Part shown: piece by piece, positions 41,557 to 59,942 of the stretch
How the letters are laid out: each line of letters begins with the position of its first letter
Position numbering within the stretch: position 1 is the stretch's first letter
From: a phage
Sequence record: PZ445451.1
DNA length: 64,000 nucleotides
Reading direction: 5' to 3' (one strand)
Made by a program: the position numbers and the translations under genes
The notes under the pieces: model-generated
What the model was told of the DNA's origin: nothing
The model's input: the letters and a program-made list of their open reading frames with translations, nothing else
The model's database searches: none

Positions 41557-41580
41557 AAACCCGCTTCGGCGGGTTTTCTT
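41557..41580 (+). terminator. Rho-independent terminator (CCCGC-TTCG-GCGGG-TTTTCTT)
   Basis: Seen directly; same ~26-nt sequence as terminator at 15877. Confidence 0.7.
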
Positions 41581-42324: not shown

Positions 42325-43137
42325 TTATTTAGTCAAATGATCTTCTATCATTTTTATGAAAGCAGGATTGCTAAAAGCATCTGCGGCCTTTTCTCGATAA
42401 ACAAAAACTCCTCTATCTTCGTAAAGAAGAGTTTCTTCGTAATTAATTCCTGGGTTAACAACAATCATTTTTGTACCCATACTAAGTGCAGGGAATAATT
42501 CCCAATTAAAATTGATAACTTGGTTTGAACATCCTACTACAACAACCAAATCTTGCATGGTCAAAGTATCAAACAAGTGAGCCATATCTGCATACAAAGG
42601 TGCAGCCTCACCAAAAAATACAACATTAGGCTTCACCCAGTTGTAATCATCTATGTTTATACTGTTGTAACCAATATCTACCAGTGTTTTGTAGTCCCCA
42701 GGATGCATACGGTAAACTACTTCAGGAAGATATCCGTGCACGTGGATAACAGAATCCCTGTCTACACCTGCTCGCTCTAGTAGATCATCAACGTTTGTTG
42801 TCAAGTTTACTACTTGGTTAGGATATTCCTTAAACCACTTTGCTATTTGAATATGTGCAGCATTAGGTTGTACATCTTTAAGCTCAACACGTCTTTTGTT
42901 ATAAAATTCGTGTGTTTTGGCATACAAATCCATACCGTTTTCGTCTACACCACCAACCACTGGAAGATCTGGTGATGTTCTCACACGATAACCTGCTTGG
43001 AAAGCTCCAATATCGCAGATCTCTTCTAAATCCCATTCTTCCCATAGGGCACGACCACTATCTGTGTCTGTTCGGAATGTTCGAATCCCACTGTCTGCAC
43101 TTAAACCAGCTCCACTAACAAAAATTACTCTTCGCAT
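42325..43137 (-). CDS. Sir2-family (sirtuin-like) NAD-dependent deacylase/ADP-ribosyltransferase, zinc-less
   Basis: Track ORF; VIFVSGAGLSADSGIRTFR (GAGIS..SGIP.FR), TTNVDDLLERAG (QN.D.LH..AG), IHVHG (catalytic His), KPNVVFFGE, VVVGCS; no CxxC zinc ribbon between HG and FGE. Confidence 0.75.
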   Translation of the reverse strand: MRRVIFVSGAGLSADSGIRTFRTDTDSGRALWEEWDLEEICDIGAFQAGYRVRTSPDLPVVGGVDENGMDLYAKTHEFYNKRRVELKDVQPNAAHIQIAKWFKEYPNQVVNLTTNVDDLLERAGVDRDSVIHVHGYLPEVVYRMHPGDYKTLVDIGYNSINIDDYNWVKPNVVFFGEAAPLYADMAHLFDTLTMQDLVVVVGCSNQVINFNWELFPALSMGTKMIVVNPGINYEETLLYEDRGVFVYREKAADAFSNPAFIKMIEDHLTK

Positions 43138-43694: not shown

Positions 43695-43733
43695 ATAAAG
43701 CCCCTGATTGGGGCTTTGGTTAAGTTTTACGGA

Positions 43734-44342
43734 TTATACCAGACTTTTAAGGTACTTGTCAAGGGCTTCTTGATCACCTTGACAAACATAGCAACGGAAG
43801 TCTTGAGCAGAAGGTTCTTTGTCCTCGTCCCAATCCCAATAAACCGTACCTTTATAACGTGAACCTGGGAACTCGAAATATGCTGTATGAGTAATATGAT
43901 GTGGGCCACCCCAAAACTGTGTAAAAGTAAATTGAGGATACGCTGCTTTAACTGTATTTTCAAACCAAGTTTTACGATCTAATGCTTCGTTTATAAAATA
44001 AGCATGGCGTTCCATTTCATCCCAGTTTTTCCAAACGCATTTTTCATCCAGAGAAAAAACAAAATCTTCACTGTTGAATTCATCTGTATCTTCCAAAGTA
44101 TCATAATCATGTGCACTAGGTATCCACCATCCAGCTTCTAATAGTGCTTTCACGGGTACAAAACCTTTTTCAGCATATTGATCAAATTCTTTTACTCTAC
44201 GTACAGTGCAGTATTCATCTTCACCACCAATGTCCAGTAGACAAGCGCCTCTGCGTCTTGCTGCAAGACCATGTGTATCAAAAACTACAACGCTACCTTC
44301 ACCATCTTCACGATCTACTTGATATGCAACTTTTTGAGTCAT
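43734..44342 (-). CDS. Hypothetical protein (202 aa)
   Basis: Track ORF. Confidence 0.55.
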   Translation of the reverse strand: MTQKVAYQVDREDGEGSVVVFDTHGLAARRRGACLLDIGGEDEYCTVRRVKEFDQYAEKGFVPVKALLEAGWWIPSAHDYDTLEDTDEFNSEDFVFSLDEKCVWKNWDEMERHAYFINEALDRKTWFENTVKAAYPQFTFTQFWGGPHHITHTAYFEFPGSRYKGTVYWDWDEDKEPSAQDFRCYVCQGDQEALDKYLKSLV

Positions 44343-44343
44343 A

Positions 44344-44466
44344 TTACCCCCAATGTATATGGGAAATTACCCAAAAGATAAATTCCCAAAAACACCAACC
44401 AAGAAAAGTTAATGGAATTATAAAAGCTATCAGAGCAGTCTTCCAGCCTTTCCACAATGTTTCCAT
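44344..44466 (-). CDS. Small hydrophobic peptide (40 aa, METLWKGWKTALIAFIIPLTFLGWCFWEFIFWVISHIHWG)
   Basis: Manual ORF; start overlaps stop of methyltransferase gene (TAATG), stop 2 nt before next ATG. Confidence 0.35.
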   Translation of the reverse strand: METLWKGWKTALIAFIIPLTFLGWCFWEFIFWVISHIHWG

Positions 44467-45455
44467 TATTCCCCCATAGATTTAAGAATATGTGCAATGA
44501 CAGGTATAGTCCAACCGTTGCCTAACATCTTATATGCTTGTGTGTTACTACTCACTTTAAAGTAATCATCTGGAACACCTTGTAAGCGGCAACACTCTTT
44601 AACCGTTAACTTTCTATAATGTACGCCTTCACTCAATTTTTCAAAGGCATCTAGATATTTTCCAGGTGGAATGTAAGCTAGTAGTACGTCTTTAGGCACA
44701 GTCGTGAGGCAACGAGTTTTTTCACTGTCCTGAACTTCCAAACAATGTACCAAACGATCAGTTTTAGATGTACTACGTTTGCCATTTTCATTAATTCTAC
44801 GCCCATATATTGCTGCCGGATAAAAAACCAGTTGTCTGCGACTCTTTTCAAAATACTGTTCTATATTACCACCTTTGGCATAATTTGCATCTATGCAATA
44901 AGCCTTATCTCTGTCTACAATACTATCATCTTCAATGATATCTTGCAACACTTCATTGGTAATATTCCAAGGTTTTATTTCCCAATTGCACCAGTATAAA
45001 CGTTGCCTATTCTGTGCAGTGAAATCTGCGGAGTTAATGAATACGGGATCAACACCTAAGTAACTTGTGATCACGTTTTCCCACTCCACCTTCATCTTAA
45101 CGTTCTCAAGCATGAACTTAACATTAGGGTTAAACTTTTTAATATGTTCAAGAATTTCAACATACTCAAAGAACAGTTTAGATCGCGGATCTTGAAAGTT
45201 CAAACCCTTACCAGAAGAAGAGAAGCCTTGGCACGGGCTACCACCTAACAAAAGATCAATTTCTCCCCACGGGATATTCCATTCTCTCCATTTTGTAACA
45301 TCACCTAATTGAACAATATCTGGAAAATTGGCTTGGCTTTCAGCTATGGCAAATTTGTCTAATTCTGAAGCATAATACTTATCTACTTCAATACCTGCGC
45401 TTTTTAGTGCAAGCATTCCTCCTGACATACCATCAAAAAGACTTAAAACTTTCAT
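44466..45455 (-). CDS. DNA (cytosine-5)-methyltransferase
   Basis: Track ORF; motif I LSLFDGMSGG, motif IV GGSPCQGFS, motif VI FMLENVK, motif VIII QNRQR, motif X GNGWTIPVIAHI. Confidence 0.85.
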   Translation of the reverse strand: MKVLSLFDGMSGGMLALKSAGIEVDKYYASELDKFAIAESQANFPDIVQLGDVTKWREWNIPWGEIDLLLGGSPCQGFSSSGKGLNFQDPRSKLFFEYVEILEHIKKFNPNVKFMLENVKMKVEWENVITSYLGVDPVFINSADFTAQNRQRLYWCNWEIKPWNITNEVLQDIIEDDSIVDRDKAYCIDANYAKGGNIEQYFEKSRRQLVFYPAAIYGRRINENGKRSTSKTDRLVHCLEVQDSEKTRCLTTVPKDVLLAYIPPGKYLDAFEKLSEGVHYRKLTVKECCRLQGVPDDYFKVSSNTQAYKMLGNGWTIPVIAHILKSMGE

Positions 45456-45868
45456 TATTGCTTCTTCTCCTTAACACTAGCTGGTAACTCTACCTTGAGG
45501 CAGAAGTTTAAACGGTAAGCCTCATTCTCATTTAAAAGTACAGATTCACACGATAACCAGAACAAGAGATCCTCAATACCAGGGCTGTTAAGCCAACAGT
45601 GCAGAAGAGAATGTTGTTCTATATCAATGTAATTTAGTAACAAGGCTTGTAAGGCATAACTAGTTCCTGTCGTTTTTGCTTTTTCAAGGATGATATTGTG
45701 TTTACTAACAACTTTCTTCCTAAGACCAAACCATTTATTAACAACAACAGTCTCCTCTTGTAGTTGTTTTCTTATTTTCTCACATTCTTTAACTACAATC
45801 TGCATCTTATCCACTGCTGATTGAAGTTGTTCTTTTGTTGGGTTTACAAAATAGTCACTATAGTACAT
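45455..45868 (-). CDS. Hypothetical protein (137 aa)
   Basis: Track ORF. Confidence 0.5.
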   Translation of the reverse strand: MYYSDYFVNPTKEQLQSAVDKMQIVVKECEKIRKQLQEETVVVNKWFGLRKKVVSKHNIILEKAKTTGTSYALQALLLNYIDIEQHSLLHCWLNSPGIEDLLFWLSCESVLLNENEAYRLNFCLKVELPASVKEKKQ

Positions 45869-45925
45869 GCTAATCTTCTCCTCTTCTGTTTTTCTGTAGT
45901 TTATTTGAAAAAACTGGTCTTGTCA

Positions 45926-45952
45926 ACAAAAAACCCGCCGAAGCGGGTTTAT
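45926..45952 (-). terminator. Rho-independent terminator (CCCGC-TTCG-GCGGG-TTTTTTGTT on minus strand)
   Basis: Seen directly. Confidence 0.6.
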
Positions 45953-50434: not shown

Positions 50435-50673
50435 TCGTTGTTACGAGCACTTTCAAGAACCTTGACAACTTCTGCATACTCTACAGCTAAACCAGCACAC
50501 ACTTCAGCTTGTTTTGCAATTGCTTGTTTAAAGAACATAGCGATTGCAACACTCTGTGTTGTGTGAATGTTATCTGCTTTAGTTGATACATGAAGATCAA
50601 AATCTTCTTCATCAAAGGTGAGTTCCATAGTAACAATAAATTTCTCGGTCATAAAAATGCTCCTCTTAAACAA
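50422..50673 (-). CDS. Hypothetical protein (83 aa)
   Basis: Track ORF. Confidence 0.5.
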   Translation of the reverse strand: MFKRSIFMTEKFIVTMELTFDEEDFDLHVSTKADNIHTTQSVAIAMFFKQAIAKQAEVCAGLAVEYAEVVKVLESARNNDWEE

Positions 50674-51175
50674 AATAGAAAGGTTGAGTTAAACCCAGCC
50701 TGTTTTTTGGGTCGTAGACGTACCAAGCATATGCTGTCTTATCAGTACCACCTGCAACAAAAGATGGTCGTTCAGCAAGAACAATCAAATTTGTTGGTGG
50801 ATTCTGTTTATGGAATTCCCTTCGTTTAATAGACTCTAGGAACCCAAGACGCAACAAGTATATGCAAACGTCTGCTTCTTTTAAGCTCTTTTGCAAGAAC
50901 TCAAGTGCAAGTCTGAATGGTGGATTTGTGATTATAATATCCGGCTTAGTATGCCATTCGTGGTTAAAATAATCCTTCCCTTCTTCTAACTCACAATATT
51001 CTGATCCTTCTGGAAAATGTTGATAAATTGCAGCAGCAGCGCCTTTACACGGTTCTGCAAAAATAAAACCTTCTTCTTTAAGGTTATTAAAATCTATTAC
51101 ACTAAATAATGCATTTATACATTTTTGTGGAGTAGGATAGTAATCAGTTGGTGGACGATCATACTTATTTGCCAC
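50666..51175 (-). CDS. Putative DNA amino-methyltransferase (N6-adenine or N4-cytosine)
   Basis: Track ORF; DYYPTP near N-terminus, AdoMet-like FAEPCKGAAAA, catalytic IIITNPPF (D/N-PP-F/Y) motif. Confidence 0.65.
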   Translation of the reverse strand: MANKYDRPPTDYYPTPQKCINALFSVIDFNNLKEEGFIFAEPCKGAAAAIYQHFPEGSEYCELEEGKDYFNHEWHTKPDIIITNPPFRLALEFLQKSLKEADVCIYLLRLGFLESIKRREFHKQNPPTNLIVLAERPSFVAGGTDKTAYAWYVYDPKNRLGLTQPFYFV

Positions 51176-52287: not shown

Positions 52288-52778
52288 TGTACTTCCTCCT
52301 GTAGTGTTTTAAGGACTGCTTTACCACCGCTTACATACTTACGGAGGTAATCAATAGCTCTTAGTGTTTCTTTATCCACAAGAATTTTATTAGTTCTTGT
52401 CAATGGATGATTCAGTAAGTCACTGCAATTTCTTACTAACATAGATTTCTTGTGAAAGATACTGCTAAGAAAAAGAAGTTTAGAATCTTCTTCATCAATC
52501 AGGAGTAATTCTGAATTAGACCCAGCTACATTTATTATACACTCAAACAAGCCTTCTTGACTATCAGATAATTCCTGGTAATATTTAGTTAGCCAATCCT
52601 CTCCTTTTAACCAACTAAAAAACATCTGAACTTTTTGCAAAGTTGTCATGTTCTCTAAACGAAGAGATATTTCTTTTTCAATCTTGTCAATATAAATCTG
52701 TCTAAACTCATTCGGCTTAACTAAGCCAGCTTGATAGCATTCATCAATACCATTGCGATCAATCTCAATTAGCGTCAT
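52284..52778 (-). CDS. Hypothetical protein (164 aa)
   Basis: Track ORF. Confidence 0.5.
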   Translation of the reverse strand: MTLIEIDRNGIDECYQAGLVKPNEFRQIYIDKIEKEISLRLENMTTLQKVQMFFSWLKGEDWLTKYYQELSDSQEGLFECIINVAGSNSELLLIDEEDSKLLFLSSIFHKKSMLVRNCSDLLNHPLTRTNKILVDKETLRAIDYLRKYVSGGKAVLKTLQEEVQ

Positions 52779-52814
52779 TTAACCTCCATAATAGGCATCC
52801 TTGCCTTGTAATTA

Positions 52815-53567
52815 TTAATATACTTCCGTGATGAACTGAGACAAACGGGAACGTTGGTTATCAGCAGTTGTCATTTCAACATAACCAATAAAATCTACAA
52901 TAGCTTCCCTTTCTCCTTCTTCGTTAATAGGAACAACACGATCTAACAAATCACCTAACCCGTTAGCTCTTCGTTTAATTGCATATGTTTGATTAACATC
53001 GCCCATAATGACAATACGTGTATTAAGACCTGCTCGCTCAAGGAGAAGTTTTACTGTGTTTGGTGACATAAGTTGAACTTCATCAATAAGAATAATGCTG
53101 TTATCCCACGTAGCACCTAGTGCATAGTTCGGAATATTAAGTTCAATTTTGCCACTTGCAATATCGTTTTCCAATTTATTTGCAGTCATAAACTGTTGGA
53201 AAATTCTTTTAGTTGACTCGTAGTGTGCTGCTAGTTTATCAGTCTTATCTCCAGATAAGAAACCGATTTGGTCATCACCTACTTCTGTCGGGTTTTTAAG
53301 GAAAATCAACTTTCTGAAGTCACCAGCTTTAAGCATTTGCAATGCTTTCCATAGTGCTGTTGTCGTTTTTCCTGTTCCTGCTGGGGCATTAACAATGGTT
53401 AAATCATTCCAAACCATGCTTCTTACAATAGCTTCTTGATTCCCAACAGGGGTAAATTCATCAAGACGGTAATCATCATTTCCTACTGCTTTAGCCGCAT
53501 AACGACTGGCACGTTTGTCATCATTGGCTGCTGATTGACGACGAGCCTTTGCGGTTTTATTTCCCAT
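52815..53567 (-). CDS. phoH: PhoH-like ATPase
   Basis: Track ORF; Walker A NAPAGTGKTTTA, Walker B/PhoH motif IILIDEVQ..RIVIMGDVNQT. Confidence 0.8.
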   Translation of the reverse strand: MGNKTAKARRQSAANDDKRASRYAAKAVGNDDYRLDEFTPVGNQEAIVRSMVWNDLTIVNAPAGTGKTTTALWKALQMLKAGDFRKLIFLKNPTEVGDDQIGFLSGDKTDKLAAHYESTKRIFQQFMTANKLENDIASGKIELNIPNYALGATWDNSIILIDEVQLMSPNTVKLLLERAGLNTRIVIMGDVNQTYAIKRRANGLGDLLDRVVPINEEGEREAIVDFIGYVEMTTADNQRSRLSQFITEVY

Positions 53568-53583
53568 GTTTGCACTCCTTATA

Positions 53584-53606
53584 AAAGGGGCTTTCGCCCC
53601 TTTGTT
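53584..53606 (-). terminator. GC hairpin plus T-run (AGGGGCGAAAGCCCCT-TTTAT), bidirectional terminator-like
   Basis: Seen directly between lysozyme and phoH. Confidence 0.5.
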
Positions 53607-54106
53607 TAGTTATAAGCGTCTAATGTTCCAGTTTTAAGCACCTGAATTACACGCTCTGCGCGATTAGGCGTTTGGCGATACCATTTACTTTTACGTAAAT
53701 TTATAGAGGCTTGAGTATAATATGAATTACTCACTAAAGTCAAGCTATTTTTGAAAGATTCTGCACCTTTCAATCCCATTTGAAATACCATATTAATAAT
53801 AGCCATTTTACGATTAGAACTTACTTTATCGTAAATAGGAGATAATATGGTGCTTGAATGGATTTGTTGTATCGCTTTCTTTACGTCACTCTCAAAGATT
53901 CTTCTAGCTTCCGCTTCAGTAATAACTCCATTGGTTTTTCTACCTACTAAGTTATCAAGAATGCGTATAGCTTCTGCTTTATCTTTGAGTTTTGTCAGAA
54001 GGTGTCCAATACCAACTGTCCAATACCCTTCGGTATCAGGATATACAGTTAGCTTTAGTCCTTCATCAAAACGTAACATATCAAACACATCAACTACTTT
54101 AGCCAT
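53606..54106 (-). CDS. e: T4-type lysozyme (endolysin, glycoside hydrolase family 24)
   Basis: Track ORF; [66 protein letters not shown] is near co-linear with T4 gpe ([32 protein letters not shown]...NQTPNRAKRVI..GTWDAY). Confidence 0.9.
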   Translation of the reverse strand: [166 protein letters not shown]

Positions 54107-54118
54107 GTTTTCCTTATA

Positions 54119-54262
54119 TTAGTCGCCATCCCCATGATCTAGCTCTTGAAACAGTAGGTGTTCAGGAGACATTTCACGTTTAGGCTTCGTCTTTTTAGTT
54201 TGGGACTTAAGCTCTGTTGCCAAAGCACGAGAAAAGATCTTACGTTTCTGTTTACCTTTCAT
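54119..54262 (-). CDS. Small basic protein (47 aa)
   Basis: Manual ORF MKGKQKRKIFSRALATELKSQTKKTKPKREMSP..; GGAG SD. Confidence 0.35.
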   Translation of the reverse strand: MKGKQKRKIFSRALATELKSQTKKTKPKREMSPEHLLFQELDHGDGD

Positions 54263-54266
54263 ATTG

Positions 54267-54533
54267 TTACTCCGCAATCTGAGCCATGAATTCACGTAGT
54301 TCAGAAAAACCTCCTACGTGGGTTAGCTGTTCACCATCTTCCACAAAAATCTGAGGAAATGTGCGTGGTAGAACACCTGTTTTCTCTAAAACCAGATTCT
54401 GAATCTGATCTAAAGAATAGTCTTCATCTAAGGTAAGGTATTTAAAATCCTGTTCACGCTGTTCCAGTAGAATCTTAGCGTTAGTGCAGAAAGGACAATT
54501 TGGTTTACCGTAGATAATAAAATTCATTTTCAC
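54267..54533 (-). CDS. nrdC: NrdC-like thioredoxin/glutaredoxin
   Basis: Track ORF; 88 aa, IIYGKPNCPFCTNAKILL..FPQIFVEDGEQLTHVGGFSELREF parallels T4 NrdC (VYGYD..CVYCDNAKRLL..QVFAPDGSHIGGFDQLREY). Confidence 0.8.
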   Translation of the reverse strand: MKMNFIIYGKPNCPFCTNAKILLEQREQDFKYLTLDEDYSLDQIQNLVLEKTGVLPRTFPQIFVEDGEQLTHVGGFSELREFMAQIAE

Positions 54534-55360
54534 TCCTTGTTTAAAAGTATAGTTAAAGTTCTTACAATACCGCTATCAACACTTCGCGGATTTAAAGTAG
54601 GATCTGTTTTTAAATAAGATGTTGCTGGTCTGACTGCTTTGGAATTATAGGTTGAAGCAGATACAGGATTAACTGTAACAGACAAATCTATAACAAGAAA
54701 TATCTTTCGTGCAAAATCATACCAAGAAATATAATCTGCACCTGCATAGTGTACAATTTTACTATTTACACCATCTTTTACAAGTTTAAAAATTGTTTCT
54801 GCAAGATCAGGTGCATAAGTAGGACATGATAAATGATCACATACTACATTAAATTCTTTTTGACCACCGTTGTAGCGTTCCAACATAGTTTTCAAAAAGT
54901 TATGTCCAAATTCACTATAAACAGAAGCTGTTCTGATAATAAGTGCTGTAGGACAAACTGCTTGTACTAAAGTTTCACCTAATTGTTTACTGTAACCGTA
55001 GGTGTTCAAGGGGTTTGTTTTACTCTCTTCTGTGCCAGCAACATGTCCATCAAAAACATAGTCTGTTGAAATATGTACAAACTGTATCAGTAAATCATTA
55101 CATGCTTTGGCAATGTTTGTTGCACCGTATGCATTAACATTTATACAGGTGTTAACATCTTCTTCAGCTTTATCTACTGCCGTGTAAGCCGCACAATTCA
55201 CAACAACATCAGGCACGTGCTGTACAAGACTATTCATAACATCTTTAAAGTTGGTAATGTCTATATCACTTGCTTCAATCAAAATAACATCTTCGGGCGC
55301 AACTTTTGCCAAAGACTGTCCTAATTGACCTTTTGAACCAAAGACTAAAAATTTTGTCAA
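54530..55360 (-). CDS. rmlD: dTDP-4-dehydrorhamnose reductase
   Basis: Track ORF; N-terminal LVFGSKGQLGQSL Rossmann motif, size and operon position after rmlC. Confidence 0.8.
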   Translation of the reverse strand: MTKFLVFGSKGQLGQSLAKVAPEDVILIEASDIDITNFKDVMNSLVQHVPDVVVNCAAYTAVDKAEEDVNTCINVNAYGATNIAKACNDLLIQFVHISTDYVFDGHVAGTEESKTNPLNTYGYSKQLGETLVQAVCPTALIIRTASVYSEFGHNFLKTMLERYNGGQKEFNVVCDHLSCPTYAPDLAETIFKLVKDGVNSKIVHYAGADYISWYDFARKIFLVIDLSVTVNPVSASTYNSKAVRPATSYLKTDPTLNPRSVDSGIVRTLTILLNKE

Positions 55361-55911
55361 AATATGATCTCCTTTAGTGTTTTGGCTTCCTGATCTTTTT
55401 GTGACAAGATAGGTTTAAAATTAATATCATTAAAGATTAAATCAAAACCCCAATCTATATTGATATCTGGATCATTCCACGCAAGACTACACTCTGAAGT
55501 CGGATCGTAATATTCCGTACATTTGTATTCAAAATCAGCAATATCACTAATCACAACAAAACCATGAGCGAAACCAGGAGGAATCCAAAATTGTGTTTTA
55601 TTCTTTTCAGATAAGAGAACACCTACCCATTCTCCAAATGTTGGACTACCAACTCTAATATCTACAGCAACATCATAAACTTCACCACGAACACAACGTA
55701 CTAACTTCCCTTGTGGGTTTTTCTTTTGAAAATGAAGCCCACGTAGAACTCCTCGGATAGAACGTGAATGGTTATCTTGGACAAAGTTTTGTTTACCTAT
55801 GTATTGATCATATAAAGCCTGATTAAAACTTTCTAAGAAAAAGCCACGTTCATCTCCGTAAACGTCAGGTTGAATGATCAACAAATCTTCGATTTTTGTT
55901 GCTTGAATCAT
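55357..55911 (-). CDS. rmlC: dTDP-4-dehydrorhamnose 3,5-epimerase
   Basis: Track ORF; ..DERGFFLESF..RGLHFQ..QGKLVRCVRGEVYDVAVDIR..PPGFAHGF typical RmlC cupin motifs. Confidence 0.85.
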   Translation of the reverse strand: MIQATKIEDLLIIQPDVYGDERGFFLESFNQALYDQYIGKQNFVQDNHSRSIRGVLRGLHFQKKNPQGKLVRCVRGEVYDVAVDIRVGSPTFGEWVGVLLSEKNKTQFWIPPGFAHGFVVISDIADFEYKCTEYYDPTSECSLAWNDPDINIDWGFDLIFNDINFKPILSQKDQEAKTLKEIIF

Positions 55912-55923
55912 TTAATTCCCCCT

Positions 55924-56793
55924 TTATTTTAATTTAAGTAAATACTTACCGTAGTCTGTTTTACTTAAAACCTCTCCAGAACTTTTTACAGAGTCTAAAG
56001 TAATCCATTCATTTTTAAAAGCAATCTCTTCCAGGCATGCAACCTTCATACCTTGTTGCTTCTCTATTGCATGAACAAATTGAGATGCTTCCATAAGACT
56101 TTCATGTGTTCCTGTATCCAGCCAAGTGAAACCTCTTCCTAGTTTACAGACACGTAAAGTCTTTTCTTTCCAGTACATCTCATTTATATCCGTAATCTCT
56201 AACTCCCCTCTAGCAGAAGGTTTAACGCTCTTAGCTTTCTGTATAACAGAATTATCGTAAAAGTACAAGCCTGTGATTGCGTAGTTGCTTTTTGGTGTTT
56301 TTGGTTTTTCTTCAATACTCACCACTGTACCTTCAGAATCAAACTCAACAACACCAAATCTTTCAGGATCATTTACGTGATACCCAAAAATATTAGCTCC
56401 ACCATTCTTTTCAATATGTTCTTTAGCAGAATCTAAAATGCTACCAAAACTCTGACCAAAGAACAAATTATCACCTAGAACAAGTGCTACAGAATCTTCA
56501 CCAATAAAGTTCTCACCAATAATAAATGCTTCTGCTAAACCTTTTGGGCTGTTCTGTACTGCATACTGTAGGGAAATACCAAAAGAAGAACCATCACCTA
56601 AAAGATTTACAAAATTAATTTGATCTTCTGGTGTTGTAATTATTAGTATTTCCCTAATTCCAGAAAGCATTAGGACAGAGAGTGGATAATAAATCATAGG
56701 CTTATCGTAAATTGGTAATAGTTGTTTACTAACCCCTTTAGTAACTGGGTAAAGTCTTGTTCCGCTACCACCTGCTAAGATAATACCTTTCAT
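55924..56793 (-). CDS. rmlA: Glucose-1-phosphate thymidylyltransferase
   Basis: Track ORF; [36 protein letters not shown]. Confidence 0.9.
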
Positions 56794-56801
56794 ACTCCTC
56801 C

Positions 56802-57791
56802 TTAAACTTTATTTTCCCACCACTCTTTGTTATCTACATACCAATCAATGGTTGAATAAAGTTTTTCTTCAAATGTGCCTTTAGCTTTCCACCCTAATTC
56901 CTTTTCAATCTTATAAGGATTCACTTCATATCTTAGATCATGTCCAGGTCTATCTGTAACCATCTCAATTAGGCTACAAGCATCTGTTTCAGATGGATAC
57001 ACCGCATCCATATAATCACAAATCATATAGATTACATCAATATTAGTTCTAGGGTTTCTGCTCCCAATATTATATGTTTCTCCAGATTTGCCTTTAGTTA
57101 CTACTAGGTGTAATGCTTCTGCGTGATCGTCAACGTATAACCAGTCTCTTACTTGAAGACCATTGCCATAAACAGGGATTGGTTTATTCATCAAGATATT
57201 TGTTATCGTTTTAGGTATCAGTTTTTCTGGATGATGATATGCTCCAAAATTATTTGAACAATTTGTTATAACTGTCGGAATACCATAAGTACGATGCCAC
57301 GCTCTTACCAAATGATCGCTTGCTGCCTTAGATGCAGCATATGGACTACTTGGCTTATAAGGATTCTGTTCTGTAAACGGATAATCCCCTTCTTCCATAT
57401 CACCATACACTTCATCTGTTGAAATATGATGAAACATTTTAAGATTTGATTTATCTCCCATTAAACGAACAGCTTCTAGAAGATTAAATGTTCCAACAAT
57501 ATTTGAATTTATAAAAACACTCGGTGATGCTATTGAATTATCTACGTGACTTTCTGCTGCAAGATGCATTATATAATCTGGGTTAACATCTGCCACAATC
57601 TTAGCAGTTAACTGAGCATTTGTCAAGTCAACACGACAAAACTTTACATTAGGTGTTTCTGATAAATTTCTAGGGTCTGAAGCGTAACCCCATTTATCTA
57701 TAACGTAAATATCATTCTTAGTATTTTTAGCCAGGAAACGAACTACTGCACTTCCAATAAAGCCTAAACCACCTGTTACTAAGTATTTCAT
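56802..57791 (-). CDS. rmlB: dTDP-glucose 4,6-dehydratase
   Basis: Track ORF; [31 protein letters not shown] (YxxxK), HISTDEVYG. Confidence 0.9.
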
Positions 57792-58078
57792 TTAGTCTCC
57801 TTCCAATTATTCCCTTCAGTAAAAATAATACCTTCATAAAACAACCATCTGGAACCTTTTTCAACAGGAACAGGAATCTCTTCTTCAGTAAAGTTATAAA
57901 CCTCTCTAGCATCTTCTAAAAGTGATGCAAATGTTTTTGGACTTACTGTTACGCGAGGAGCATTGATCAGTTGATCTAGCATCATTCTACTATCCTCCTT
58001 ACCAAACGTGTTGAGAAATAATAGTTTCCGTTTCAATGTTATATTTTTCAAGAAGTTGTGCGTAGGCTTCTTTTGCAT
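57788..58078 (-). CDS. Hypothetical protein (96 aa)
   Basis: Track ORF. Confidence 0.5.
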   Translation of the reverse strand: MQKKPTHNFLKNITLKRKLLFLNTFGKEDSRMMLDQLINAPRVTVSPKTFASLLEDAREVYNFTEEEIPVPVEKGSRWLFYEGIIFTEGNNWKETK

Positions 58079-58325
58079 TCTTATTTAGTTGCTCAAGATC
58101 TACAGCTATACTTCCTTCGCCACCTTCTAAATAAATGCCATATATGCAATAAGATTCATCAGCATCATAGAAAGGAGAGATACGGCTTAAATCAAGACCT
58201 TCTTGTAAGAACCAATTAAAATCTCCATCAAATTCTTCTTCAATTCTAGGATCTTCTCCTACAGCCTCTTCCCATTTATTAAAAGGTGCACCCTGTAACA
58301 TACGCCATTCAGTGGCAACTCCCAT
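57999..58325 (-). CDS. Hypothetical protein (108 aa)
   Basis: Track ORF; GAGGAGG SD 5 nt upstream of ATG 58325. Confidence 0.5.
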   Translation of the reverse strand: MGVATEWRMLQGAPFNKWEEAVGEDPRIEEEFDGDFNWFLQEGLDLSRISPFYDADESYCIYGIYLEGGEGSIAVDLEQLNKNAKEAYAQLLEKYNIETETIISQHVW

Positions 58326-58461
58326 TATCTTCCTCCTCTTCTTTTTCTTCCGTGTGAACGAAGCCTAAACCGTTACAATTCCAACACGGAATAAATTGTT
58401 CCATACTAACAATAAAATTCCCAGTACCACCGCAGATAGGACAAATACTTACATCATCCAT
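58309..58461 (-). CDS. Mini zinc-finger protein with DnaJ-type CxxCxGxG repeats (50 aa)
   Basis: Manual ORF MDDVSICPICGGTGNFIVSMEQFIPCWNCNGLGFVHTEEKEEEEDNGSCH; GAGGAG SD; overlaps next gene by ~17 nt in another frame. Confidence 0.45.
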   Translation of the reverse strand: MDDVSICPICGGTGNFIVSMEQFIPCWNCNGLGFVHTEEKEEEEDNGSCH

Positions 58462-58463
58462 TA

Positions 58464-58646
58464 TTAAAGCTCCTCAATCTTTTCTAACATCTGTTTTAAC
58501 TCATTCTCTGTTAACAGAATTTCTGTGATACCATCATAAGTTTCTACCATCAGAGTAAAACATTTTTCTCCATCTGAACACACAAAAGCACCACCTTCAT
58601 CTTCTGTTAAGTCAGAATTAATATCCACATCAACAAAATCAATCAT
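58464..58646 (-). CDS. Hypothetical acidic protein (60 aa)
   Basis: Track ORF; start moved to MIDFVDVD (AAGGAG SD). Confidence 0.45.
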   Translation of the reverse strand: MIDFVDVDINSDLTEDEGGAFVCSDGEKCFTLMVETYDGITEILLTENELKQMLEKIEEL

Positions 58647-58857
58647 CTTTTTCTCCTTTGATAATTTCAAACTTGGCTACACCATTAACTATAATGTGAC
58701 CGCAAGACATAACTCCTAGCCAATGATCACCATTCTTTTTTAAACGTTTACCGTAAACATCACAGAAACCATTCTGTAATTCGGAAGCCTCATAAGAGGC
58801 TCCCTTTTCGAAAACGTCTTTGAAGTCAGAAATTAATCCAACACAAAGTAGTTTCAT
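58639..58857 (-). CDS. Hypothetical protein (72 aa)
   Basis: Track ORF immediately downstream of nrdB. Confidence 0.5.
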   Translation of the reverse strand: MKLLCVGLISDFKDVFEKGASYEASELQNGFCDVYGKRLKKNGDHWLGVMSCGHIIVNGVAKFEIIKGEKDD

Positions 58858-59942
58858 TAGAAGTCTAACTCCTCGTCATCACTTACATCTTTATTTGCTG
58901 AATTCAGTTTGTAAGCTGTAATTTGGATCTCCTGTGCTGCTGCTTGAATTTGATCTGGATTTAACCAAACATCCATCCAAGGCAGTGGACTTTTCTTCGG
59001 TGCACGGAATTTGTGTTTCATTTTCAGTCTGCGATAGATAGGCGCGGCATTGAAGTAAACCCAAAGTTTGAACAACTCTGCGTTACCACCAACGATAACC
59101 CTTCCTTCACTAAACAGATAGTCACACCAATCTTCCTCTTGTCCAACTACCGTATCAAGAATTTCTGTCAGAACGTCGATATTATCTTCGTATACTTTTC
59201 TCCAGACAGGATCTTTCAGCAGTGCATCAATAATAGCATAATCCATTTTAACGTGCAATAGTTCATCCAACATAATTTTTTGAATAAGTTTAGCTGCACC
59301 TACAAACAGTTGCTGCTCTGCTAAGGCAAATGTTGCAGCAAAAGATGATATGAATTGAATGCCTTCCAGACCGATAAGTGCAATCATTCCTTTCAGAATC
59401 AGTAGACGAAGGTTATCATCCTTCTCAATCAGACCTAGAGCATATTTATGTCCTGCCTCTGCCAGATCACTCATTATCTCTTCAACTATACCCATCCTCT
59501 GGAAGATTCTTTCGTTCTCCATAATCTGATCGATAACTTCATTTGGATTAGGGATACACTGACGAATAATTTCAGAATATGTCAAAGCGTGTAAAACTTC
59601 CATTTCTGATTGCTTCATCATCATTGCACATGCTTCGTTGTTGCTTAAAAATGGTGCAAACAAAGTGATGATTGATTTAGCAAGTGAATCATTTTCCCAC
59701 TGGAAAGATAGGTTTTTGATCATAACATCATAGTTGCTTTTAGAACAAGCTACGAAATCTTTTCGTGTCTGATCTAAGTTTACTTCGTTTTCATCCCAAT
59801 CTTGCTGTTTTTGTAGTTTGTACAGGCGATGCATTTCTGGGTATGTTACGTTAATAGAATCAAAAATACCTAACTGTTCGCCCAAAAATACAGGGTAGAA
59901 ACCTTCTTTGTAAGTGTCGTTGTATAAATTAATTGCTGCCAT
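58857..59942 (-). CDS. nrdB: Ribonucleoside-diphosphate reductase small subunit (class Ia NrdB)
   Basis: Track ORF; 361 aa, ferritin-like di-iron ligand helices (..EVLHALTYSEII.., ..LEGIQFISSFAATFAL..), acidic C-terminal tail DDEELDF; continuous ORF with no intron. Confidence 0.9.
   Translation of the reverse strand: MAAINLYNDTYKEGFYPVFLGEQLGIFDSINVTYPEMHRLYKLQKQQDWDENEVNLDQTRKDFVACSKSNYDVMIKNLSFQWENDSLAKSIITLFAPFLSNNEACAMMMKQSEMEVLHALTYSEIIRQCIPNPNEVIDQIMENERIFQRMGIVEEIMSDLAEAGHKYALGLIEKDDNLRLLILKGMIALIGLEGIQFISSFAATFALAEQQLFVGAAKLIQKIMLDELLHVKMDYAIIDALLKDPVWRKVYEDNIDVLTEILDTVVGQEEDWCDYLFSEGRVIVGGNAELFKLWVYFNAAPIYRRLKMKHKFRAPKKSPLPWMDVWLNPDQIQAAAQEIQITAYKLNSANKDVSDDEELDF

Follow-up and report, generated by a model that had tools for sequence, protein, structure and literature searches.

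bas60_0189 of the phi92-like phage PaulScherrer (Bas60), a predicted solitary C5-cytosine DNA methyltransferase with a plausible role in restriction protection

Orphan DNA methyltransferases of phages are generally seen as anti-restriction devices (Murphy et al. 2013, as cited in PMC8256090). The group closest to the locus described here is formed by gp043 of phage phi92 and its orthologues in the genus Justusliebigvirus (97-100% identity, 55 records), which are annotated as DNA or cytosine methyltransferases. Simple virus-encoded enzymes that group with Dnmt3, such as M.CviAIV, are already known (PMC3227630), and a set of phage C5-methyltransferases coupled to TET enzymes was shown to be specific for GpC[C/T], its subclades being told apart by an insert in the recognition region (Burke et al. 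2021, PMC8256090). The restriction sensitivity of E. coli phages was surveyed with six restriction-modification (RM) systems, a pair from each of the types I, II and III, namely EcoKI, EcoCFT_I, EcoRI, EcoRV, EcoP1_I and EcoCFT_II (Maffei et al. 2021, PMC8594841). [quoted passage not shown] No report on methylation in Bas60, phi92 or any phi92-like phage was found in the searched literature; the Aionostat preprint (10.1101/2025.04.16.649189) uses Bas60 and is silent on methylation.

The gene under study lies at 44466..45455 on the minus strand of the 64-kb window, i.e. the whole stretch of phage DNA analysed (64,000 nucleotides), and runs from an ATG start to a TAA stop, encoding a protein of 329 residues. 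A 4-kb stretch around it matches, at 100% identity, Escherichia phage PaulScherrer (Bas60, MZ501100.1), a member of the genus Justusliebigvirus, the phi92-like E. coli phages, in the BASEL collection; window position p corresponds to position p+64675 of MZ501100.1. The gene is deposited there as bas60_0189 (QXV83924.1), the orthologue of phi92 gp043, and labelled "Dcm-like C5 cytosine methyltransferase", while gp043 is annotated "putative site-specific DNA-methylase". Both bas60_0189 and its general annotation are already public, and the gene is real, ordinary and known. At 95% protein identity or more the methyltransferase was found in 55 phage records, and no phage record fell between 60 and 95%.

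The first-pass annotation had described a complete C5 methyltransferase, and every motif that it listed is indeed in place. Motif I is FDGMSGG (residues 7-13), motif IV is PCQ (74-76), motif VI is ENV (117-119) and motif VIII is QNRQR (148-152). Beyond the recognition region follow motif IX, RKLTVKECCRLQ (281-292), and motif X, GNGWTIPVI, starting at residue 312 (GNG at 312-314), so that the order I, IV, VI, VIII, recognition region, IX, X is the canonical one. Such a motif set goes far beyond what chance would produce. The Pfam model PF00145 matched over practically its full length (E=4.1e-44, 151.8 bits for a cut-off of 22; protein residues 1-328 on model positions 1-323 of 324), and TIGR00675 scored 140.9 bits, above its cut-off of 100.65. 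The codon of the catalytic cysteine, Cys75 of PCQ, was read at 45231..45233 (minus strand), and this residue is invariant in an alignment of 81 sequences. The other catalytic or SAM-binding residues invariant across the 81 relatives are E31, D33, the remainder of P74-C75-Q76, E117-N118-V119, R150 and R152.

The protein was also modelled with AF2 (pLDDT 87.6, pTM 0.85), with low confidence in the catalytic loop and in a single loop of the recognition region. The model predicts the two-domain fold of C5-methyltransferases. Its top Foldseek matches were the catalytic domains of DNMT3A/B and M.HhaI (E 7.5e-20 for DNMT3B, 7.3e-17 for M.HhaI), and a fold search of BFVD returned generic viral C5-methyltransferases only. 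The bacterial enzymes M.HhaI (GCGC) and M.HaeIII (GGCC) share with bas60_0189 the motif order I-X, the catalytic Cys, Glu and Arg and the fold (phmmer against PDB sequences, E about 1e-22 to 1e-23; Foldseek TM about 0.65). However, only the catalytic core aligns, the recognition regions are unrelated, and bas60_0189 lacks a partner restriction enzyme. The catalytic domain of DNMT3A/3B is nominally the best match of solved structure (phmmer 1.1e-24, target-normalised TM 0.74-0.78) and has in common with bas60_0189 an FDG-type motif I and a GxxW(S/T)(I/V)PVI motif X. In contrast to DNMT3, bas60_0189 consists of the catalytic domain only, without PWWP or ADD domains, and its recognition region is about 75 residues longer. 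A special affinity to DNMT3 was rejected, given that the lead over M.HhaI is marginal (90 versus 85 bits in sequence; query-normalised TM 0.66 versus 0.65), that PWWP and ADD are absent and that there is no sign of CpG specificity.

The relation to E. coli Dcm and M.EcoRII (CCWGG), suggested by the depositors' label, goes as far as the superfamily. The Dcm subfamily model NF007772 gave 29 bits against a cut-off of 710, from the C-terminal motif only, and BLASTP aligned bas60_0189 with E. coli Dcm at 24% identity in the core motifs only, leaving the recognition region unaligned. A Vsr-like neighbour was sought by Pfam in the flanking ORFs and none was found. Despite its label, bas60_0189 is not a Dcm orthologue.

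The target-recognition region is placed by the motif positions between motifs VIII and IX (residues 157-280; 44616..44987, minus strand). Searched alone against PDB sequences, it returned chance hits only (E ~1); since it matches nothing of known specificity, the target is not inferable from the sequence. The family to which the protein belongs is very large, with at least 8000 candidates, all at E<=1e-10 and mostly metagenomic, many of them 50-63% identical to bas60_0189. In an alignment of 80 relatives, a variable module stands out within the recognition region (residues 212-275; 44631-44822, minus strand), which is deleted, replaced or enlarged by inserts of 20-58 residues. The median identity among these relatives is 39% in the module versus 69% in the N-terminal core, and the conserved core of the family comprises residues 1-211 and 276-329. 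The module looks like a swappable recognition module, a feature similar to that of the TET-coupled phage enzymes.

The methyltransferase gene probably belongs to a short unit in which it is co-transcribed with two small genes of unassigned function. Upstream in the same unit is bas60_0190 (45455..45868, minus strand; 137 aa), which matches PHROG 16551, of unknown function, and downstream is bas60_0187 (43734..44342, minus strand; 202 aa), likewise assigned to a PHROG of unknown function. Consensus scans placed a terminator-like hairpin (45931-45950) and, directly after it, a match to a sigma70-like promoter, TTGACA-17-TAAACT (45926-45898), in front of bas60_0190 (together 45898..45950, minus strand); the annotation of phage Paula marks terminators at the position of this hairpin. 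Another terminator-like hairpin just 3' of bas60_0187 (43697..43717, minus strand) is the probable end of the unit. These matches suggest a short unit read by the host RNA polymerase from a host-type promoter and bounded by the two hairpins. Across seven Justusliebigvirus genomes, the differences in bas60_0189 comprise 56 synonymous and 16 nonsynonymous ones (pN/pS 0.07), compared with a pN/pS of 0.11-0.14 for the flanking genes (0.14 for bas60_0190). The methyltransferase protein is under strong purifying selection.

Solitary status was assessed in the phage itself and among its relatives. Pfam returned no hits for the two flanking ORFs, and no nuclease fold was apparent in the downstream 202-aa protein as modelled. 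In phAPEC8, of the sister genus Phapecoctavirus, homologues of both flanking genes are present (25% identity, E 7e-10, for bas60_0190; 68% for bas60_0187), and the position between them is held by an unrelated gene, the methyltransferase being absent. A methyltransferase 83% identical to bas60_0189 on metagenomic contigs (L005/L006) has other immediate neighbours. More generally, at nine metagenomic places (loci L005-L009 and L011-L013) and 80 IMG/VR loci the relatives lie in phage replication or early modules among unrelated neighbours, and ORFs of the HNH or GIY-YIG homing type adjoin them only occasionally at the nine metagenomic places. Among the 138 nearest ORFs of the 80 viral loci, the commonest Pfam family was the phage PDDEXK_15 (4 of 138), the others including terminases, helicases and SSB. 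No restriction-enzyme or TET family recurs among the 25 commonest neighbour families, and none beyond these 25 turns up more than once. On plasmids, the closest relatives share 44-46% identity and none exceeds 47%; the remaining ones are at ~31% or below, and no close relative embedded in an RM system emerged from the plasmid search. A type II restriction-modification system was considered and rejected, as there is neither an adjacent cognate endonuclease nor a nuclease family that co-occurs across relatives. The earlier proposal that the enzyme has no partner endonuclease is borne out by flanking genes that carry no nuclease signature and both have homologues in the methyltransferase-less phAPEC8, and the "orphan" status of bas60_0189 and its clade is well supported.

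A hydrophobic 40-aa ORF downstream of the methyltransferase (bas60_0188, phi92 gp042; 44344..44466, minus strand) had been proposed to be translationally coupled to it. The overlap exists, the ATG of the ORF and the stop of the methyltransferase gene forming TAATG, and a GGGGGA stands upstream. However, the junction upstream of the methyltransferase is also TAATG and the next one TAATATG, so that tight packing characterises the unit as a whole rather than this pair in particular. The ORF is a doubtful gene. It shows one synonymous and six nonsynonymous differences across seven genomes, and at least six nonsynonymous changes out of seven would have a P of 0.001-0.014 under the constraint of the neighbouring genes. 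Codon 5 (W5) became a stop in phage Paula, the ATG start became GTG in inny and VivaForever, and the stop was lost in one phage. The ORF thus evolves neutrally. It was found in Justusliebigvirus only, is absent beside the 83%-identical methyltransferase of L005/L006, and matched nothing in PHROG or Pfam; it was left out by about half of the annotators, and the phi92 record flags 'bad prodigal statistics'. In all likelihood it is no functional partner of the methyltransferase, and possibly not a gene at all. The overlap stands as described while the partner role is not supported, with the neutral changes, the stop in Paula and the absence from L005/L006 against it.

The amino-methyltransferase-like gene noticed in the first pass is bas60_0202 (50666..51175, minus strand; 169 aa). 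Its product carries an NPPF motif at residue 84 and matches PHROG 799 'DNA methyltransferase' (4.7e-56), while Pfam, NCBIfam and PDB searches gave no hit. It is 84% identical in phAPEC8 and thus conserved beyond the genus. This prediction was upheld by the motif and the PHROG match, and the earlier count of two methyltransferases in the phage, both of them predicted, was incomplete: the genome has three, including the Dam-like bas60_0039, which lies outside the window.

The composition of the whole 150,425-bp genome, joined from the window and the MZ501100.1 record, was computed to examine the use of restriction sites. Several palindromes are purged, with observed/expected counts of 0/47 for AAGCTT, 1/33 for CTGCAG, 0/20 for GGTACC, 0/50 for GGWCC and 6/21 for CCSGG, whereas GATC, GCGC, CCWGG (202 observed, 211 expected), GAATTC and GATATC occur at expectation. 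The purging of many palindromes points to avoidance, and not methylation, as the main anti-restriction strategy. The EcoRI and EcoRV sites (GAATTC and GATATC), being at expectation in Bas60, are in line with the reported sensitivity. The target of the methyltransferase was also sought by composition, as a motif spared in Bas60 yet avoided in the methyltransferase-less phAPEC8, of which 50 kb were used. No motif spared only where the methyltransferase is present emerged from this comparison. In both genomes, CCWGG, GCGC and GATC occur as often as expected (CCWGG ratio 0.97 in the 50 kb of phAPEC8); GTAC is less avoided in Bas60 (0.77) than in phAPEC8 (0.35), and AGTACT, GGTACC and CGTACG are purged. 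A CpG deamination signature was rejected, the observed/expected CpG ratios being 0.71 in Bas60 and 0.81 in phAPEC8 with the same TpG and CpA ratios (1.13-1.15 in both).

The hosts give a further indication. Methylation at C-5mC-WGG does not create a purine-5mC substrate of McrBC. The close relatives alia, outra, inny, muut and arall were isolated on wild-type MG1655, which carries McrA, McrBC and Mrr, all deleted by Maffei et al. for their permissive host. Growth of these relatives on McrBC+ MG1655 speaks against a dense methylation in purine-5mC contexts such as GpC, CpG, GGCC or GCGC. A rare site or a pyrimidine-5mC context, e.g. C-5mC-WGG, is the more likely target. By the same token a GpC[C/T] target is indirectly disfavoured, since dense G-5mC would be a substrate of McrBC.

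Taken together, bas60_0189 probably encodes an active solitary SAM-dependent DNA cytosine-5 methyltransferase whose role would be to shield the progeny DNA of the phage from restriction. By analogy with the family, the enzyme would flip the target cytosine out of the helix, Cys75 would attack C6, N3 would be protonated by Glu117 of ENV, and C5 would receive the methyl group from SAM. Residues 157-280 would set the target, a specific short sequence. Replicating phage DNA would be marked at this sequence, and the progeny would then escape those host type II enzymes that are blocked by 5mC there. For a genome that otherwise relies mainly on restriction-site avoidance, methylation would thereby be a narrow additional safeguard. 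Restriction protection by bas60_0189 is plausible, and the anti-restriction role proposed at first can be kept in a reduced form: as phi92-like phages are sensitive to all six RM systems, any protection must be narrow. Two further observations count against the protective reading, namely that 5mC is disadvantageous wherever the host has McrBC, McrA or Mrr, the isolation of close relatives on MG1655 notwithstanding, and that the sister genus, represented by phAPEC8, manages without the methyltransferase.

Within this protective explanation, a variant makes the enzyme an equivalent of Dcm, which would ensure full methylation of CCWGG in fast-replicating phage DNA against enzymes of the EcoRII type. 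The depositors' name 'Dcm-like', the retention of CCWGG at expectation while its siblings GGWCC and CCSGG are purged, and the compatibility of C-5mC-WGG with growth on MG1655 all speak for it, but phAPEC8 keeps CCWGG at expectation without the gene, the subfamily model and the alignment with Dcm fall short as described above, and no vsr gene is linked; this variant is rather unlikely. The mark might instead serve the phage's own biology, for instance by letting a phage nuclease tell self from host DNA or by tuning transcription, replication or packaging. The high restriction sensitivity that phi92-like phages retain would then be unsurprising, as would the position of the gene amid early or accessory genes without assigned function, and Burke et al. 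(PMC8256090) considered short-motif phage C5 methylation unlikely to be broadly protective and other roles possible. Nevertheless, the neighbourhood contains no identifiable methyl-dependent reader or nuclease, and phAPEC8 keeps the flanking genes without the methyltransferase, which is thus dispensable for the core life cycle; such a role is unlikely. A related view takes the enzyme as a member of a phage-restricted clade with a swappable 60-aa module that lays down a short-motif mark, e.g. of the GpC type, for self-marking or regulation and that is tolerated in McrBC+ hosts through some evasion mechanism; it is decidedly improbable.

Far less can be said for the two remaining explanations. 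Methylation could be the first step of a cytosine hypermodification from 5mC via 5hmC to a glycosylated base, using the phage glycosyltransferases and dTDP-rhamnose genes. The genome does encode putative glycosyltransferases and a dTDP-rhamnose pathway, rhamnosylated bases were speculated upon by Olsen et al. (PMC7552041), and TET-linked phage C5-methyltransferases exist (PMC8256090). Contrary to these, bas60_0189 has no TET/JBP or other 2OG oxygenase beside it or among the 20 largest hypothetical proteins that the genome encodes, and neither a TET nor a glycosyltransferase is adjacent to it or recurrent near its relatives, the 80 viral loci included as regards TET. Moreover, the glycosyltransferase genes are located ~58 kb from the methyltransferase, phAPEC8 has the rhamnose pathway without the C5-methyltransferase, and the restriction sensitivity of phi92-like phages does not fit a hypermodified genome. 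This explanation is very improbable, and membership in a TET-coupled hypermodification module was rejected on the absence of TET/JBP from the neighbours and from the same 20 proteins. Finally, an inactive or selfish passenger that has lost DNA methylation could account for the variable slot, which holds an unrelated gene in phAPEC8 and differs in neighbours in L005, and for the homing endonucleases that sometimes flank relatives. It is hardly credible for a gene whose catalytic motifs are all intact, whose pN/pS is equal to or below that of its neighbours and which is conserved in 55 records.

The protective reading, in its narrow form, hence remains the preferred one. Its significance beyond housekeeping is small. 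Knowledge of the target site would shed light on the host range of the phi92-like phages and on their restriction sensitivity. These phages, which are candidates for therapy, evade or provoke RM or type IV systems (such as McrBC) that could then be named. What the analysis changes is a series of corrections: the enzyme is not a Dcm orthologue, methyltransferase genes number three in the genome, restriction is apparently countered mainly by site avoidance, and the 40-aa ORF is most likely no partner gene. Overall, bas60_0189 was found in a phage genome, in a nuclease-free setting and maintained by selection, as is characteristic of an orphan phage DNA methyltransferase. Like the members of the phi92 gp043 group, it is phage-encoded and without a cognate endonuclease; no difference of substance separates it from this group or from orphan phage methyltransferases in general, the gene being the deposited bas60_0189 itself.

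Among the proteins related to the C5-cytosine methyltransferase (bas60_0189, window 44466-45455, minus strand), two of about 560 residues, P0011 and P0044, each contain four PF00145 stretches and are read as putative tandem double C5-methyltransferases. Another, P0113, carries a fused dCMP/cytidine-deaminase zinc-binding domain. In a metagenomic relative (L013:2292-2980), a GIY-YIG (SegE-like) ORF lies 3' of the methyltransferase gene, and the last 17 codons of the methyltransferase are repeated beyond this ORF with 82% identity. The arrangement looks like the footprint of a homing-endonuclease insertion. At the methyltransferase locus, four records referred to as 'Campylobacter phage' A150, A145, C3 and A110a (MG065639, MG065645, MG065656 and MG065689) are 98% identical to phi92-like phages of E. 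coli. These records were probably given a wrong label or represent contaminant genomes.

At the 3' end of the methyltransferase gene, the GenBank CDS of the doubtful 40-residue ORF bas60_0188 starts at an ATA codon (window 44467-44469), 3 nt before its ATG; this start is probably a slip of the annotation. The methyltransferase gene is followed, three genes downstream, by one coding for a Sir2-family protein (window 42325-43137, minus strand; PF02146, E 2.8e-22), conserved in phAPEC8, a phage of the sister genus, and in the relative at metagenomic locus L005. Within window positions 43697-43762 (minus strand), a perfect sigma70 consensus (TTGACA, 18 nt, TG-TATAAT) overlaps the end of bas60_0187, and a terminator-like hairpin directly follows it, before the next gene. 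A 20-nt GC hairpin, AAACCCGCTTCGGCGGGTTT, is present in three copies, one of them as reverse complement, at window 15877, 41557 and 45931. Within the scanned stretch, the copies at 41557 and 45931 are marked as terminator-like, and the hairpins look like bidirectional terminators used more than once.

Outside the window, four 'hypothetical proteins' of MZ501100.1 match TerD, a vWA-TerF-like protein, TelA and TerC. The region 52762-59331 of this record (L003:2762-9331) is predicted to be a phage-borne tellurite-resistance-type (Ter) stress-response cluster. Phosphoribosyltransferase, HAD and macrodomain genes are located near these matches.

In the whole Bas60 genome (window 1-64000 and the rest of MZ501100.1), many 6-bp palindromes are extremely avoided. 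Observed over expected counts are 0/47 for AAGCTT, 1/33 for CTGCAG, 0/21 for CAGCTG, 0/20 for GGTACC, 0/15 for CCATGG, and 0/14 for both TCCGGA and CGATCG; GGWCC (0/50) and CCSGG (6/21) are also depleted. GATC, GCGC, CCWGG, GAATTC and GATATC occur at expectation. The pattern differs in the first 50 kb of phAPEC8, which contain AAGCTT at 47/46 and GTAC at 46/133.
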